Position numbers and translations under genes: made by a program. Under the pieces are notes generated by a model. The model was not told the DNA's origin. It saw only the letters and a program-made list of their open reading frames with translations, and did no database searches. Below, piece after piece: positions 6,793 through 30,774 of a stretch of DNA of 30,774 bases (position 1 is its first letter; the number at the start of each line of letters is the position of its first letter). The DNA is from a virus (Duplodnaviria; Heunggongvirae; Uroviricota; Caudoviricetes). The DNA is taken from the IMG/VR virus record IMGVR_UViG_2609459790_000004, one strand, 5' to 3'.

Positions 6793-6873
6793 GCTGAGGG
6801 GCTTATGTGCGGTGTGGTCAGTTGCGGCCGTGCTGGCCGCTCCACGGTGGTGGTGGGTGTGTCTGGGCTGGCG

Positions 6874-13750: not shown

Positions 13751-14174
13751 CGGCATCAACATGCTGAAAGGTTTTGAAGGGTGCAGGCTGGCCGCTTATC
13801 AGGATTCTGTAGGCGTCTGGACGATCGGTTATGGATGGACTCAACCCGTCAACGGCGTGCCGGTTGGCAAGGGCATGACCATTACGCAGGACACTGCCGA
13901 TAGCCTGTTGCGTAGCGGTCTGGTGCAATATGAAAAAGGCGTTACGGGGCTCGTTAAAGTCACCATCAATCAAAATCAGTTCGATGCGCTGGTTGATTTT
14001 GCCTACAACCTGGGCGTAAAGGCGCTGGAAGGATCCACGCTGCTGAAAAAGCTGAATGCTGGCGATTACGCCGGGGCTGCGGCTGAGTTTCCAAAATGGA
14101 ATAAAGCAGGTGGCAAGGTGTTGCCGGGGCTGGTTAAGCGTCGGGAAGCCGAGCGTACGTTATTTCTGGCCTGA
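13734..14174 (+). CDS. K: endolysin, phage lysozyme family (P2 gpK-like)
   Basis: GFEGCRLAAYQDSVGVWTIGYGW catalytic-Glu motif of lysozyme-like endolysins; start either GTG 13734 (GGAGGG RBS) or ATG 13740. Confidence 0.85.
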   Translation: MEMSNNGINMLKGFEGCRLAAYQDSVGVWTIGYGWTQPVNGVPVGKGMTITQDTADSLLRSGLVQYEKGVTGLVKVTINQNQFDALVDFAYNLGVKALEGSTLLKKLNAGDYAGAAAEFPKWNKAGGKVLPGLVKRREAERTLFLA

Positions 14175-14182
14175 TCATTTTT

Positions 14183-14228
14183 AACTGTGCTGGCCGTGCG
14201 TATCGAGCGCGGTCATTTTTGACAGTGC
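14183..14228 (+). repeat. 46-bp terminator-like hairpin element, copy 1 (paralog of 21634-21679)
   Basis: 85% identity (39/46) with copy 2; contains a 9-bp GC-rich stem (14191-14199 / 14207-14215) followed by T5; sits 9 bp after K stop. Confidence 0.5.
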
Positions 14229-20023: not shown

Positions 20024-20220
20024 TGAGTAATTATGCGATAGTTAAAAATGGCGTCGTTGAAAATGTTGTTGTATGGGACGGGATTGGTAATATTTTCGAC
20101 AATTATATAGTGGTAAATATTGAAAATATAAATGCAGGAATAGGCTGGTTGTATGACGGAGAGGCTTTTACCCCTCCGTCTGAGCTTACGCCTACACCAC
20201 CGGGAAATCAGGCCAGTTAA
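20023..20220 (+). CDS. small hypothetical protein (65 aa) downstream of H in the expressed orientation; possible tail-fibre chaperone
   Basis: ATG overlapping H stop (TAATG); AT-rich; function inferred only from position. Confidence 0.45.
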   Translation: MSNYAIVKNGVVENVVVWDGIGNIFDNYIVVNIENINAGIGWLYDGEAFTPPSELTPTPPGNQAS

Positions 20221-20599
20221 TATCTGGCGCAGTGCTGGTATCAATTACCTGCACTGCGTCGATATAGTCCAGCACTGCGTTTAACCGCGTAGTTTCTGCA
20301 TCAGTCAGCATACGCCCTGCCAGCAATTTCATTTGCAGCACACTAATTGACTGCATTGCTGAATCTATCAGCGACTGTTTTTTCTGCTCGCCTCTCGCAA
20401 CTTCTTCTTCACGCGTCAAACCGATGGGCTCTTGCAATACCGGGTGACCATCATTTCCAGCGGAAATTATTTTTCCATTGGCCTGACCGTCAAACAGCCG
20501 GTGATATTCATCTGAGCTAATTTCTATAGCGTTATCTGGAATGTGGTTATTTAATCCGTCAATATAAAATGCACCATCTAAAAAATAATATTTCATCAT
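20192..20599 (-). CDS. tail fibre assembly protein (Tfa/gpG/Mu U-like), alternative-orientation copy
   Basis: N-terminus MMKYYFLDGAFY and C-terminus ..DAVQVIDTSTAPDINWPDFPVV match the conserved tail-fibre-assembly family ends; ATG overlaps the stop of the alternative fibre segment. Confidence 0.8.
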   Translation of the reverse strand: MMKYYFLDGAFYIDGLNNHIPDNAIEISSDEYHRLFDGQANGKIISAGNDGHPVLQEPIGLTREEEVARGEQKKQSLIDSAMQSISVLQMKLLAGRMLTDAETTRLNAVLDYIDAVQVIDTSTAPDINWPDFPVV

Positions 20600-20982
20600 T
20601 TACCCCACGCGAATACGATGCATCCTGCATTTTCTACTGCTGAAATTTGTGATCCGTTATCTACCCTGCATATTGCCTGAACGCCTGTTTTAGTGAGCGT
20701 ACTCAGTTGTATTGCCCATGTATTGGAAATTCCTGCACCCCAGGCATACGGATTACGCTCTATCACAACAGCGCCCAGGCCGAAAACATCAAAACTGGCA
20801 GGAAAAACAACGTCCGCAGCACCGCCAGAATTTGTATTCCCCAGTACCCACATGATTTTAAAACCCCCAGGGAATCGCGCCACACCGGGCATGTTTAGTG
20901 TTGATGCAAAACTGGACATATCAGGAATCTGATTTGCGCCGGTGCCGACGTTGCGGCGCGACGCTGTACCCAGATCTCCCAA
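20596..20982 (-). CDS. alternative tail-fibre C-terminal segment (silent in this orientation; fuses to H constant part after inversion)
   Basis: No ATG of its own (track start is TTG within the right hix site); after inversion at the 2-bp cores the H frame reads ..QNLGLGD-LGTASRRNVG.. continuously into this ORF. Confidence 0.7.
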   Translation of the reverse strand: MGDLGTASRRNVGTGANQIPDMSSFASTLNMPGVARFPGGFKIMWVLGNTNSGGAADVVFPASFDVFGLGAVVIERNPYAWGAGISNTWAIQLSTLTKTGVQAICRVDNGSQISAVENAGCIVFAWGK

Positions 20983-21053: not shown

Positions 21054-21635
21054 ATGCTTATTGGATATGTACGCGTATCAACAAATGACCAGAACACGGC
21101 TTTGCAACGTGATGCGCTGGAGCGGTCAGGATGTGAGCTTATTTTTGAAGATAAAATGAGCGGTAAAACAGCAGAAAGACCGGGGCTTAAAAAATTACTA
21201 AAGCGCCTTTCTCCAGAAGATACGCTTGTTGTCTGGAAGCTGGATCGTCTTGGGCGGAGTATGCGGAACTTGGTCATTCTGGTGGAGGAACTAAAGCAAC
21301 GTTCCGTGAACTTCCGCAGCCTGACTGACAGTATTGATACCTCAACACCAATGGGGCGTTTCTTTTTTCATGTTATGGGAGCACTGGCAGAGATGGAGAG
21401 AGAATTGATTGTCGAGCGTACGCGTGCAGGACTGGTGGCCGCTCGCGCGCAGGGAAGGATCGGCGGTAGACGTCCAAAACTAACACCAGAACAATGGGCG
21501 CAGGCGGGTAGGTTAATAGCGGCAGGGGAATCGCGCCGGAGGGTTGCCATAATTTATGATGTTGGGATATCTACGCTTTACAAAAAATTCCCAGCGACCA
21601 GAGATAAGAATTCCGGCACGCATGGCCGGTTATAA
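21054..21635 (+). CDS. serine recombinase, Hin/Gin/Cin/Pin-family DNA invertase
   Basis: 193-aa ORF; GYVRVSTNDQ (catalytic Ser region), TLVVWKLDRLGRS, MGRFFFHVMGALAEMERELIVERT and C-terminal HTH are near-identical in pattern to Hin/Gin. Confidence 0.95.
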   Translation: MLIGYVRVSTNDQNTALQRDALERSGCELIFEDKMSGKTAERPGLKKLLKRLSPEDTLVVWKLDRLGRSMRNLVILVEELKQRSVNFRSLTDSIDTSTPMGRFFFHVMGALAEMERELIVERTRAGLVAARAQGRIGGRRPKLTPEQWAQAGRLIAAGESRRRVAIIYDVGISTLYKKFPATRDKNSGTHGRL

Positions 21636-21679
21636 CCGTGCTGGCCGTGTGTATCGAGTACGGTCACTTTTAACGGTGC
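21634..21679 (+). repeat. 46-bp terminator-like hairpin element, copy 2 (paralog of 14183-14228)
   Basis: Overlaps invertase stop codon; stem 21642-21650 / 21658-21666 followed by T4; three stem differences from copy 1 all preserve pairing. Confidence 0.5.
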
Positions 21680-27500: not shown

Positions 27501-28619
27501 ATGGACACGACAGAAAACCGATATTCGCCGCGCCCGGCGTTCAGTATTGAGATTGAAGGTAAGCAGCTTACGGCGCTGGATAACCGGCTGATCTCCCTTT
27601 CCCTGACAGATAACCGGGGCTTTGAAGCGGACACGCTGGATCTGACTCTGGATGATGCAGACGGGCAGGTAGCCTTACCATCACGCGGCGCAAAGATATC
27701 GGTGGCGCTGGGCTGGGATAATGATCCATTGGTTTTTAAGGGCGTGTATACGGTTGACGAGATCGGACACTCTGGCCCGCCTGACCAGCTAACGATCAGT
27801 GCCAGAAGCGCAGATTTCCGCGATACCTTTAACGTGAAGAGGGAATATAGCTGGCACGATATTACCGTGGGGGATGTGGTTGCCAGCATTGCCAGCCGTT
27901 ACGATCTGCGTGCGGGCGTCAGCGAAGAACTGGCGAAGATTGAGATAGATCACGCCGATCAGACGAGTGAATCAGATATCAGCTTCTTAACGCGCATGGC
28001 CGAAATGCTGGGCGCGGTGGCAACCATTAAAAACGGTATGCTTCTGTTTATCACGCCGGGCAAGGGAGTAACGCAGAGCGGCAAGCCGCTGCCGGTGATC
28101 GAGATAGTCCGGTCAAGCGGTGATAAACATCGGTTTAACGTAGCTGACCGCGACGCGTACACGGGCGTAACTGCATACTGGCTTGATCTCAACTTTGGCA
28201 AGAAACCATCCACTACCGTGAAGAAAACCACCCGCAGGCGACGAACCAGCCAGGCCAAAAAGAAAGAACCCGCATCAAGCAAAAAAGAAGGGGATTATCT
28301 GGCCGGGGCCGAAGGCAACGTTTTTGTTATCCGTAAAACCTTCAAGACGGAAAAGGCGGCGAAGCGGGCCGCTGCGGCTAAGTGGCGGGAGTTGCAGCGT
28401 GGAGCGGCGACGTTCAGCATCACCCTGGCGCGTGGCCGCGCGGATTTGTACCCGGAACAGCCCGCCAGCGTCTACGGCTTTAAGTCCACGATCGACAGTG
28501 GGAACTGGACGATAACGCGGTGCGTTCACGATATTGGCGGGGGAGGGTTTACCACATCGCTGGAACTGGAAGTAAAAATCGACGACTGGACAGCGGAGAG
28601 TGACGATTCAACGTCTTAA
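27501..28619 (+). CDS. D: tail protein D (P2 gpD-like)
   Basis: 372-aa ORF; ATG 27501 with GAAGGGG RBS; size and position as P2 D. Confidence 0.9.
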   Translation: MDTTENRYSPRPAFSIEIEGKQLTALDNRLISLSLTDNRGFEADTLDLTLDDADGQVALPSRGAKISVALGWDNDPLVFKGVYTVDEIGHSGPPDQLTISARSADFRDTFNVKREYSWHDITVGDVVASIASRYDLRAGVSEELAKIEIDHADQTSESDISFLTRMAEMLGAVATIKNGMLLFITPGKGVTQSGKPLPVIEIVRSSGDKHRFNVADRDAYTGVTAYWLDLNFGKKPSTTVKKTTRRRRTSQAKKKEPASSKKEGDYLAGAEGNVFVIRKTFKTEKAAKRAAAAKWRELQRGAATFSITLARGRADLYPEQPASVYGFKSTIDSGNWTITRCVHDIGGGGFTTSLELEVKIDDWTAESDDSTS

Positions 28620-28667
28620 GCGTTATACTTGCGTTGATATTAACCAGTCCTGAAAGGAGGCCCGCGT

Positions 28668-28910
28668 ATGGCAATGCGCTGTCCTCGCTGCCGTGCAATA
28701 GCAAAAACCAGAACCAGCGTTGAGCTGAGTTTGCTTGTACGGCGCAGCTATCACCAGTGTCAAAATATGTTGTGCGGGTACTGTTTCACCAGCATGACGG
28801 AAATAGACGGTTCACTAAATCAGACCCAGCCAGCGCCCGGCGCGATGGTGCCACAAGAAGCTTTTCCACGAAGTCACCACGGCGAAGATCAGTTATCGCT
28901 GGCATTATAA
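28668..28910 (+). CDS. ogr: Ogr/Delta-family zinc-finger late transcription activator
   Basis: 80-aa ORF with CPRC...YHQCQNMLCGYCF Cys4 motif matching Ogr; AAGGAGG RBS. Confidence 0.85.
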   Translation: MAMRCPRCRAIAKTRTSVELSLLVRRSYHQCQNMLCGYCFTSMTEIDGSLNQTQPAPGAMVPQEAFPRSHHGEDQLSLAL

Positions 28911-28912
28911 AA

Positions 28913-28933
28913 GCGGCCCCTAAATGGGGCCGT
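28913..28933. terminator. candidate bidirectional intrinsic terminator between convergent ogr and the membrane-protein gene
   Basis: Stem GCGGCCCC / GGGGCCGT with 5-nt loop; T-rich on the plus strand after the stem and U-rich after it on the minus strand. Confidence 0.45.
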
Positions 28934-28936
28934 TAT

Positions 28937-29584
28937 TTATTTCATGTTTATGGCTACAAACCTTGATCGTGTAAGGTTTTCACTTAAATATTGATCGCCA
29001 CTATCCCCGGCCTTTTTGCCCCAGATATCACACGAAGATTCACCGCCCTGAAAAACGTAGCCTTTGGTTAAAATGTCGTTAGTCACATAAATATGATCGA
29101 ATAAACCAGCCTTCCAAGCCCTGTTAGATTCCCCGTGATTGAAATAGCTGATGCATACGGACTGAACGGCACTTTTCGCCTGTAGTTCTTCTATGCTGTC
29201 AAAATTGAATGCAACTACTAAGGCTTTGTTGTAAATGACTGGTTTAACTGTGAGATTCAGATCTCCGAGCGCCTTGGATAAGGCAAGGGGAAGTTGATTA
29301 GTCGCTTCTGAAAAGTCGATAGTGGTTGTTAATTGTTCTTTGGGTTTAGCCGCGGGTTGTGTTTGTTCTGTGTTTGTCACTGCTGGCTGGGGTTTATTTT
29401 CAGCAACAGCTTTCGGCGCGACTGGTGCAACCATTGAACCTATGATTGCTGCCAAGAGGCACACCCCGAAGTAGATAGCAGATGAGCGCTTTCGATTTGG
29501 CATAAAAACCCATTTGGGATTGATTAGCCCAACCCAAAAAGCGATCCCAGCAACAGCGGCGATAACGGTGATGATTGTTTCCAT
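28937..29584 (-). CDS. hypothetical membrane protein (two N-terminal TM helices, Pro/Gln-rich linker, ~150-aa C-terminal domain with two Cys); prophage-end cargo
   Basis: 215-aa ORF, ATG 29584 with GGAGGG RBS; AT-rich relative to surrounding phage genes; no recognisable family. Confidence 0.6.
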   Translation of the reverse strand: METIITVIAAVAGIAFWVGLINPKWVFMPNRKRSSAIYFGVCLLAAIIGSMVAPVAPKAVAENKPQPAVTNTEQTQPAAKPKEQLTTTIDFSEATNQLPLALSKALGDLNLTVKPVIYNKALVVAFNFDSIEELQAKSAVQSVCISYFNHGESNRAWKAGLFDHIYVTNDILTKGYVFQGGESSCDIWGKKAGDSGDQYLSENLTRSRFVAINMK

Positions 29585-29762
29585 TGAGTACCCTCCGTAT
29601 TAAGGCGGGTATTATTGTCGATGGTGCTCAAAAACGGAACAGCCAAGCGCGGTGCGCCTGGCTGCTTCTTTGTCGAAGTGTAGTCAAAATGTAGACGAAG
29701 TTTAGAATAAATCCTTTTATTCCATTATGTTACTGGCTGGATTTCTTCACCATCCCTGTCTT

Positions 29763-29790
29763 CCCCCCCCTGCTGTGGGGGGTTTTTTTT
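29763..29790 (+). terminator. intrinsic terminator upstream of fieF (C8-loop-G6 stem followed by T8)
   Basis: CCCCCCCC TGCTGT GGGGGG TTTTTTTT read directly from sequence; position matches where a cpxP/CpxQ-type terminator would lie if the host flank is cpxP-fieF. Confidence 0.6.
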
Positions 29791-29871
29791 ATCCTCAATT
29801 TGCCTGCTGCTTAATGCATTGCAGATGATTTGCTTCCGTTATACTAGCGTCAGTTGATAGCGGGAGTATTT

Positions 29872-30774
29872 ATGAATCAATCTTATGGACGGCTGGTCAG
29901 TCGGGCGGCGATTGCTGCGACGGCGATGGCTTCGCTGCTATTGCTGATTAAAATTTTTGCATGGTGGTATACCGGGTCGGTGAGTATTCTCGCCGCGCTG
30001 GTGGATTCGCTGGTGGATATCGGCGCGTCGTTGACGAATTTATTGGTGGTGCGATATTCCCTGCAACCTGCCGACGATAATCACTCGTTTGGTCACGGTA
30101 AAGCTGAGTCCCTCGCGGCGCTGGCGCAAAGTATGTTTATCTCCGGTTCGGCACTATTCCTGTTTTTGACGGGTATTCAACATCTGATATCTCCAACACC
30201 GATGACAGATCCAGGCGTCGGGGTTATCGTGACAATTGTGGCGCTAATTTGTACGATTATCCTTGTCTCGTTTCAGCGTTGGGTGGTGCGGCGGACGCAA
30301 AGCCAGGCGGTGCGGGCTGATATGCTACATTACCAGTCTGATGTTATGATGAACGGCGCAATTCTGCTGGCGCTGGGGTTGTCCTGGTACGGCTGGCATC
30401 GCGCCGATGCTCTGTTTGCATTGGGAATCGGCATCTATATTTTATATAGCGCGTTACGCATGGGATATGAGGCGGTACAGTCATTACTGGATCGCGCATT
30501 GCCTGATGAGGAACGGCAAGAAATTATTGATATCGTGACTTCCTGGCCGGGTGTTAGCGGCGCTCACGATCTTCGCACGCGGCAGTCAGGGCCGACCCGC
30601 TTTATTCAGATTCATTTGGAAATGGAAGACTCTCTGCCTTTGGTTCAGGCACATATGGTGGCGGATCAGGTAGAGCAGGCTATTTTACGGCGTTTTCCGG
30701 GATCGGATGTAATTATCCATCAGGACCCCTGTTCCGTCGTACCCAGGGAGGGTAAACGGTCTATGCTTTCATAA
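29872..30774 (+). CDS. fieF: cation diffusion facilitator family ferrous-iron/zinc efflux transporter FieF (YiiP)
   Basis: Translation from ATG 29872 ([49 protein letters not shown]...) matches enterobacterial FieF as I recall it; track ORF begins at an upstream TTG 29854. Confidence 0.95.

Follow-up and report, generated by a model that had tools for sequence, protein, structure and literature searches.

We analyzed a gene at the right end of a prophage carried by a 30,774-nucleotide stretch of DNA (IMG/VR virus record IMGVR_UViG_2609459790_000004), which is called the window in this text. The gene is an open reading frame (ORF) at 28937-29584 on the minus strand, which starts with ATG and encodes 215 amino acids (aa) followed by a stop codon. 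Its product is identical to WP_016246766.1, annotated as 'hypothetical protein', and the identical gene is annotated in Escherichia coli KMi029. A Shine-Dalgarno sequence, GGAGGG, was read at 29591-29596 on the same strand, 6-7 nt ahead of the ATG, and was conserved in 5/5 aligned cassettes. On the left, the ORF faces ogr, the gene of the late-gene activator (28668-28910, plus strand; Pfam Ogr_Delta, E 1.5e-13), which is preceded by gene D and forms the left border of the cargo slot in which the ORF lies. That is, ogr and the ORF are convergent. The interval between them holds a hairpin at 28912-28934 that had a terminator-like score on both strands and folded better than shuffled sequences (z -4.4 and -3.1 on its two strands), and we read it as a two-way intrinsic terminator common to ogr on the plus strand and the ORF on the minus strand. 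The ribosome-binding site (RBS), the convergence with ogr and the shared bidirectional terminator had been claimed in an earlier interpretation made from the letters alone (the sequence-only reading), and all three were found. In the allele of NZ_OY754834, the insertion sequence (IS) IS4 (L002, 2659-3987) lies between ogr and the ORF and replaces the shared terminator region.

The window contains an almost complete P2-type prophage, in which we found int, a short helix-turn-helix (HTH) repressor, Cox, a Dam-type methylase, A, a portal gene, tail genes, an invertase, D and ogr; tum was absent between A and Q. When the right end was aligned with E. coli K-12, the host sequence resumed only at 29748, within the cpxQ terminator. 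The alignments also defined a 78-bp phage arm of the attachment site at 29670-29747, which bounds the cargo slot on the right. All sister prophages have this arm, irrespective of their cargo (the sister prophages being those at the same host site, with flanks ~97-98% identical to the window); it is absent from K-12, and runs into attP and int in a circular phage record. Because the phage arm separates the ORF from the host sequence at 29748, the ORF lies inside the phage, between ogr and the host junction, as the sequence-only reading had placed it. In K-12, which has no prophage here, the order is cpxP-cpxQ-fieF, and no counterpart of the ORF exists between cpxQ and fieF; a host housekeeping gene beside fieF is thus excluded. 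These results establish the ORF as accessory cargo (a moron) of a P2-type prophage, the integration site being the cpxQ terminator, upstream of fieF.

In the alignments with K-12 and with the circular attP, the att core (29748-29793) corresponded to the 3'-terminal part, terminator included, of the host cpxP/cpxQ transcript. Integration at this site swaps the own terminator of the CpxQ small RNA for the phage copy. The stem of the core reads CCCCCCCC..GGGGGG in the window, and CCCCCACA..TGTGGGGG in K-12 and in the circular phage.

The content of the slot between ogr and the attachment site varied. The record of P2 itself has the Int-binding arm of attP within 5 nt after the ogr terminator, and in the sister prophage of strain SWYHX138 (L007), at the same host site, the slot is empty and the att arm follows ogr directly. 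The premise that the attachment site comes directly after ogr in P2 was thus confirmed, and the sister prophage shows the same order. Full-length homologues of Orf97 of coliphage 186 were found in the same slot of sister prophages, and the 237-aa gene of TOK-001 is one of them (49% identity to Orf97 over 242 residues). A 240-aa gene occupies the slot in ECONIH4. The slot of 0H26 holds a 127-aa gene on the other strand (L005, 1901-2284; phrog_2320, function unknown), and that of 730V1 (L006, 1913-2889) holds a zinc-ribbon gene together with a gene annotated as 'type VI secretion system-associated protein TagO', a pair that belongs to phrog_6586 and phrog_1848, which are of unknown function. Surveys of P2-like phages list hotspots at A-Q, the tail genes, int-att and int-primase (PMC13586616), and reviews place a hotspot loosely 'between a tail protein and CI', inside which the ogr-att slot falls.

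The present gene is rare among complete E. coli genomes. The att arm of this phage was carried by 33 of 5426 such genomes; 15 of these 33 had the leader typical of the anchor-type cassette, and 5 had the gene itself. A collection of species-representative genomes contained no type-A gene. The same phage was also found, with an intact attP, as a separate circular record of 32,330 bp (L024; NZ_JBQJRQ010000002.1, strain 2020N21-246-1), in addition to an integrated copy, which suggests that the prophage excises and is active.

We then compared the window allele with the NZ_OY754834 allele. Between them, 28 changes are synonymous and 12 non-synonymous, which corresponds to a ratio of non-synonymous to synonymous substitution rates (dN/dS) of 0.11, and the reading frame was intact in all alleles. 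Because of this dN/dS value, we conclude that the ORF is a real gene under purifying selection. One could suppose instead that it is a decaying or non-functional chimera left by illegitimate recombination of two cargo genes; its rarity (5/5426 genomes), its composition from two families (described below) and the IS4 adjoining one allele would suit such an origin. The selection value and the intact frame speak against this, and so do the conserved RBS and the fact that the same architecture is kept at 54-60% identity in prophages of Citrobacter and Enterobacter and is found in 11 IMG/VR contigs. We consider decay highly improbable.

The 215-aa protein has two hydrophobic stretches by hydropathy, at residues 3-21 and 36-56, and the loop between them contains four Lys or Arg residues and no acidic residue. 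Residues 55-96 are enriched in Pro, Gln, Thr and Ala, and the cysteines are C42, C144 and C185. The GC content is 0.54-0.58 in gene D and ogr, but drops to 0.42-0.46 across the region that encodes the C-terminal part. Hydropathy and composition thereby recovered every element that the sequence-only reading had described in the protein, that is, two N-terminal transmembrane helices, a Pro/Gln linker, a Cys-bearing C-terminal domain and an AT-rich composition. What had been missed was the presence of two evolutionary modules and of a further hairpin at 29638-29666. The protein had no match in Pfam or NCBIfam. PHROGs divided it into two parts, residues 1-76 belonging to phrog_3403 and residues 98-203 to phrog_3807; the earlier statement that no family could be assigned therefore did not hold, since two families of unknown function fit, one per half.

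The N-terminal match (E 2.6e-18) aligned residues 1-76 with the first 75 of the 243 profile positions of phrog_3403, and this family is Orf97 of coliphage 186 (E 2e-139). From phrog_3403, BLASTP and hydropathy, residues 1-58 (29411-29584, minus strand) are predicted to form a two-helix membrane hairpin, which we call the anchor; its motif is GLI(N/K)P..V.MP.RK(R/K)SS. In BLASTP, the protein shared 39% identity with 186 Orf97 (E 2e-17), in the N-terminal part only, and 61% identity with the Orf97 homologue of TOK-001 over residues 1-67, with nothing past that point. An alignment of 13 proteins contained 25 invariant columns, of which 23 fell in the anchor (residues 1-54). The anchor is followed by a low-complexity linker of Pro, Gln, Thr, Ala and Lys (residues 59-96; 29297-29410, minus strand), delimited by composition, which is weakly conserved and variable in length among homologues. 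Residues 97-215 (28940-29296, minus strand) make up the C-terminal domain, which we call the head.

At the DNA level, the similarity to the TOK-001 cassette covered the leader and the anchor and ended in the linker. Between the window allele and the NZ_OY754834 allele, the synonymous divergence (dS) was 0.023 in the anchor (29411-29584) and 0.39 in the head (28940-29296). Because the DNA similarity stops in the linker and because dS differs between the two parts, the gene is a recombinational mosaic in which an Orf97 anchor bears a different head, and anchor and head have different histories even inside one gene type. The C-terminal domain of Orf97 itself (~165 residues, FYxC..SEY...WC...TTF(R/K)G.N..G) was not found in the 215-aa protein. 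A distant relationship between the two head types was also tested, and was rejected from an hhalign comparison of the head alignments (probability 0.1). A further family, phrog_28655 (225 positions), matched the anchor alone (E 0.05 with this protein and 3e-4 with Orf97), and possibly stands for a third kind of head joined to this anchor.

A stand-alone hairpin family was considered and rejected as well, for the short anchor-only ORFs turned out to be orf97 genes, located downstream of tum, that had been truncated or disrupted by an IS. In several 186-type prophages (L022, 4001-4177; L023, 4001-4168), an IS insertion or an exchange of the downstream cargo has left only the anchor of the orf97 gene after tum, so that this locus too has evidently been remodelled.

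The head belongs to phrog_3807 (E 1.8e-6, residues 98-203). It is predicted to fold as an alpha/beta domain in the periplasm, and its cysteines C144 and C185 are nearly invariant. A profile of the head was searched against 1.84 billion cluster representatives, and only 15 matches were obtained at E <= 0.001, among which the stand-alone members of phrog_3807 were recovered with E values from 5e-27 to 2e-5. Two matches, P0017 (7018 aa) and P0019 (672 aa), were judged to be spurious partial ones; for P0019 the sequence was inspected and is that of a low-complexity repeat protein, and P0017 was judged without its sequence. Eleven of the 13 inspected matches were proteins of 127-145 residues with typical Sec signal peptides at the N-terminus. 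The mature part of these stand-alone members aligned with residues ~97-215 of the present protein, the two conserved cysteines included, and their signal peptides sit where the 215-aa protein has its anchor and linker. In the head alignment C64 was invariant and C105 was conserved in at least 90% of the sequences.

Because the stand-alone members carry Sec signal peptides, the head is an exported, periplasmic domain. The 215-aa protein has no cleavable signal peptide, and has instead the two-helix anchor, with an acidic N-terminus (M-E-T), and the linker. The export of the head family gives independent support for the topology predicted by the positive-inside rule, in which the loop would face the cytoplasm, while the N-terminus and everything C-terminal of the hairpin would lie in the periplasm. 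A disulfide bond between C144 and C185 probably stabilizes the head. The structure model of the head was confident (predicted local distance difference test, pLDDT, 89), and a full-length AlphaFold2 model of the protein (pLDDT 39.5) was not used. The structural matches of the head were only uncharacterised proteins of P2-like phages in BFVD, and a sequence search of the PDB with profiles of both head types returned nothing.

The strong conservation of the anchor bears on one explanation of the gene, namely that its product is an abortive-infection effector. In such a mechanism, the head would sense a phage, the hairpin would oligomerise and depolarise the inner membrane, and the cell would be killed or arrested before phage release. 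Transmembrane proteins in prophage hotspots are commonly read as suicide effectors (Rousset et al. 2022, PMC9122126), and an anchor that is far more conserved than the heads (23/25 invariant columns; dS 0.023 vs 0.39) would fit one that is active in itself. In the GenBank entry of phage 186 (U32222), orf97 (29604..30335) bears the note 'expression from plasmid blocks 186 infection', and this effect is compatible with exclusion and abortive infection alike. However, two helices and a short basic loop with no further domain form a minimal anchor, the stand-alone heads have no membrane segment and hence do not depend on a hairpin effector, and the anchor-only ORFs are orf97 truncations or IS remnants and not an independent family. 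We regard an abortive-infection effector as quite improbable.

The genes of the head family occupy recurrent positions beside lysogeny genes. Stand-alone head genes were located between the CI repressor and integrase of 186-type prophages in 3/3 look-ups (Atlantibacter, Citrobacter and a metagenomic contig), and between cI and int in 6/6 IMG/VR loci. In a Klebsiella-phage lineage (13/13 IMG/VR loci), the head gene lies between the prophage end and ogr and is convergent with ogr, as in the window, and gp9 of Burkholderia phage KS14 (phrog_3807) adjoins gene D. The tethered form, with anchor and head, was convergent with ogr-D in 11/11 IMG/VR loci, one of which (L036) shows the circular order C-int-gene. 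Wherever int was in the same locus, the head-family gene was on the strand of int and the repressor; wherever the locus contained ogr and D, it converged on both late genes every time. The head family was found solely in P2/186-like phage (Peduoviridae) contexts. In the Atlantibacter 186-type phage, a 240-aa gene that is unrelated to Orf97 follows int (L010, 7643-8365; equivalents in L011-L013); it had no Pfam match and is another cargo gene of the int-att-ogr interval.

A small exported head in such a slot could also belong to a lysogenic-conversion factor that acts on the envelope and not on phages. It might be an immunity protein or inhibitor against a bacteriocin, a type VI peptidoglycan effector or lysozyme, or it might serve envelope and stress physiology or host interaction. 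Small periplasmic or membrane-tethered disulfide proteins are typical of immunity proteins and inhibitors, such as the colicin M immunity protein Cmi, and the size, tether and probable disulfide of the present protein resemble them. In addition, the same slot holds the gene annotated as TagO in another prophage, att-adjacent slots often house conversion genes, and no defence-system model matches the protein. Against these points, the cassette is a single gene with no partner toxin gene, the head family is confined to P2/186-like phages beside lysogeny genes, and the only known relative of the anchor is tied to blocked phage infection. Furthermore, no structural likeness of the head to known immunity proteins or lysozyme inhibitors was found. 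Taken together, a conversion factor of this kind is unlikely, while still deserving consideration.

We next compared the protein with known systems. The 215-aa protein and 186 Orf97 share a homologous two-helix anchor, including the GLI(K/N)P..V.MP.RKRSS loop, then a linker and a Cys-containing extracytoplasmic domain, and in both cases a terminator-like hairpin lies upstream of the gene. In contrast, the C-terminal domains are unrelated (no BLASTP similarity beyond the linker; hhalign probability 0.1), and for this reason the 215-aa protein would not count as a full member of the Orf97 family. The genes also differ in setting. According to the 186 record, orf97 belongs to the LexA-controlled p95 operon, where it comes after tum and the partial terminator t95a, whereas the window gene lies outside such an operon, in a P2-type prophage with Cox and C and without tum. 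Since full-length Orf97 homologues also occur in the ogr-att slot, location in the tum operon may not define the Orf97 family. The infection-blocking phenotype has been reported for Orf97 only, in that database note only.

With the stand-alone members of phrog_3807 (125-147 aa), such as KS14 gp9 and the 125-aa protein of Klebsiella phage ST437-OXA245phi4.1, the protein shares the homologous head with its two conserved cysteines, and the genes share their place beside lysogeny genes or ogr/D, convergent with ogr/D where these are present. The difference is in the export device: the stand-alone proteins, which have no known function, are freed by a cleavable signal peptide, whereas the head of the window protein is tethered by an Orf97 hairpin and a linker of ~40 residues. 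By this difference, the 215-aa protein would not be a full stand-alone phrog_3807 member either. Thus the gene is new as a fusion of modules from the Orf97 and phrog_3807 families, while exclusion-type accessory proteins of prophages are already known. One such protein is Glo of Vibrio phage K139 (Peduoviridae), which is encoded in the repressor-int slot and annotated as 'periplasmic protein; involved in phage exclusion'. This small protein of the periplasm shares its slot with the stand-alone phrog_3807 genes; homology of the head to Glo was rejected (hhalign probability 0.1), and Glo is a positional and functional analogue only. T4 Imm, HK97 gp15 and lactococcal Sie2009 are small inner-membrane exclusion proteins with little or no cytoplasmic part, each encoded by a single gene and acting at the DNA-entry step. 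The 215-aa protein has no sequence or fold relation to them (no Pfam and no structural match), and a mechanism like theirs can only be proposed for it.

From these comparisons, we give about an even chance to the view that the 215-aa protein is a superinfection-exclusion protein tethered to the inner membrane and acting in the periplasm. The hairpin of residues 1-58 would lie in the inner membrane with its basic loop in the cytoplasm and both ends in the periplasm, and the flexible Pro/Gln/Thr linker (residues 59-96) would carry a periplasmic alpha/beta head of ~119 residues, standing in place of Orf97's own, unrelated periplasmic domain. The tethered head would bind the genome-delivery component of an incoming phage, or a host factor used by that machinery, and this binding would stop DNA entry after adsorption. 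That is, the type of head would set which phages are excluded. We favor exclusion because the anchor's relative, Orf97, is annotated as blocking phage infection, and because the exported head family sits where lysogen-expressed accessory genes and Glo sit. The protein has essentially no cytoplasmic part, which also fits the predicted action at the outer face of the inner membrane. An envelope-acting, exclusion-type role, which the sequence-only reading had already suggested, is the best-supported reading of an Orf97-homologous anchor that carries a periplasmic head.

The upstream region gives some indication of when the gene could be expressed. No LexA box was present within 5 kb of the ORF, neither late-promoter-like repeats nor TGT-N12-ACA (Ogr-type) dyads were found within 1 kb of it, and Rfam gave nothing significant around the gene. 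From its sequence context, the gene does not appear to be a late gene. A terminator scan detected, on the minus strand at 29638-29666, ~50 nt upstream of the start codon, a strong, terminator-like hairpin of 13 pairs followed by TTCCGTTTTTG. The 106-nt leader that contains it (29575-29680) had, as a whole, a folding energy of -39.1 kcal/mol and a z of -5.5. The stem is preserved in the TOK-001 cassette despite changes on both sides, a similar hairpin lies 60 nt upstream of the Klebsiella-phage homologue, and t95a, annotated 'partial termination', is in the same relative place before orf97 of phage 186. DNA homology between the leader and the 186 t95a region was tried and rejected, as the two could not be aligned; only the arrangement is alike.

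The circular form of the phage has C, int, attP and the ORF in this order, with all three genes on one strand and the ORF downstream of C and int (L024; IMG/VR L036). Because of this order, the 29638-29666 hairpin probably terminates the C-int transcription that crosses attP in the circular phage. A conserved AATAAT is present in the leader (29616-29611), with no acceptable -35 element by inspection. Transcripts of the gene could start at a weak leader promoter or, as is annotated for orf97, arise by partial read-through. In the integrated state, the DNA upstream of the ORF is antisense fieF.

This arrangement raises a further explanation, in which the gene serves the phage life cycle only while the genome is circular, after infection or excision, and does not benefit the stable lysogen. 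Examples would be self-exclusion of siblings during establishment or induction, a role in integration, or lysis timing. The same-strand order C-int-attP-ORF in L024 and L036 is in favor of it, as is the failure to detect a promoter of the gene's own, and the upstream hairpin resembles t95a, which is read through to orf97 from an SOS promoter during induction. Yet the life cycle does not require the gene, since many sister phages are without it; the gene is also not part of the lysis cassette, and a late promoter is absent. The self-exclusion version, moreover, overlaps with the favored exclusion function rather than opposing it. We think a purely circular-phase function is rather improbable.

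Several points weigh against superinfection exclusion as the function of this protein. Exclusion is an inferred function of the protein; our literature searches found a characterisation of Orf97 only as the GenBank note, and none for phrog_3807 proteins. The Orf97 note concerns a different head, and the phenotype may reside there. The head and K139 Glo lack homology, so that Glo offers no more than a positional parallel. The protein matched no family of the PADLOC-DB v2 defence models at E <= 10, and comparison of the head model with solved or characterised structures gave no relative of known function. As to expression, no sigma-70-like promoter was found on the gene's strand in 28600-29900. 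Because the hairpin precedes the gene, and because integration cuts the gene off from C-int transcription, its expression in the lysogen should not be taken as given. The sequence-only reading had proposed a moron expressed from the lysogen: the phage cargo part of this proposal was borne out, and the lysogen expression part was not, given the lack of both a sigma-70-like promoter and a LexA box.

The superinfection-exclusion reading can be extended to the family as a whole. We speculate that the Orf97 hairpin is a generic tether for interchangeable heads, each of which would recognise the ejection machinery of another phage, so that exclusion would be modular and recombining. At least two unrelated head types have been seen, possibly with phrog_28655 as a third, and the phrog_3807 head would then be an unrecognised exclusion fold. 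In such a system, expression could be tied to the circular, non-integrated genome through C-int read-through across attP. We consider this extended idea unlikely, although worth stating.

Two other features of the prophage were noted. Direct repeats of the form TG.TCA..T...AAC.GTGCTGGCCG... occur at 6815-6839, 14172-14228 and 21623-21679, ahead of gene blocks, and resemble the late-promoter elements that depend on Ogr in P2-like phages. Also, at 21054-21635 and 20192-20982, a serine DNA invertase (Resolvase and HTH_7) adjoins tail-fibre and tail-fibre-assembly genes on the opposite strand, an arrangement that suggests an invertible host-range segment.

Envelope-acting prophage genes decide which other phages enter the lysogen, and they are therefore relevant to phage therapy and to competition among prophages. 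The practical weight of the present gene is limited, because it is rare and its function is inferred. The ogr-att interval, of which reviews give only loose coverage, is documented here as a cargo slot. Our findings suggest that a single membrane anchor is combined with different periplasmic heads in P2/186-like phages, and they show that one head can circulate in both a free and a tethered form. Should exclusion specificity lie in the heads, head swaps between anchors would offer a simple system for studying how genome entry is blocked at the inner membrane.

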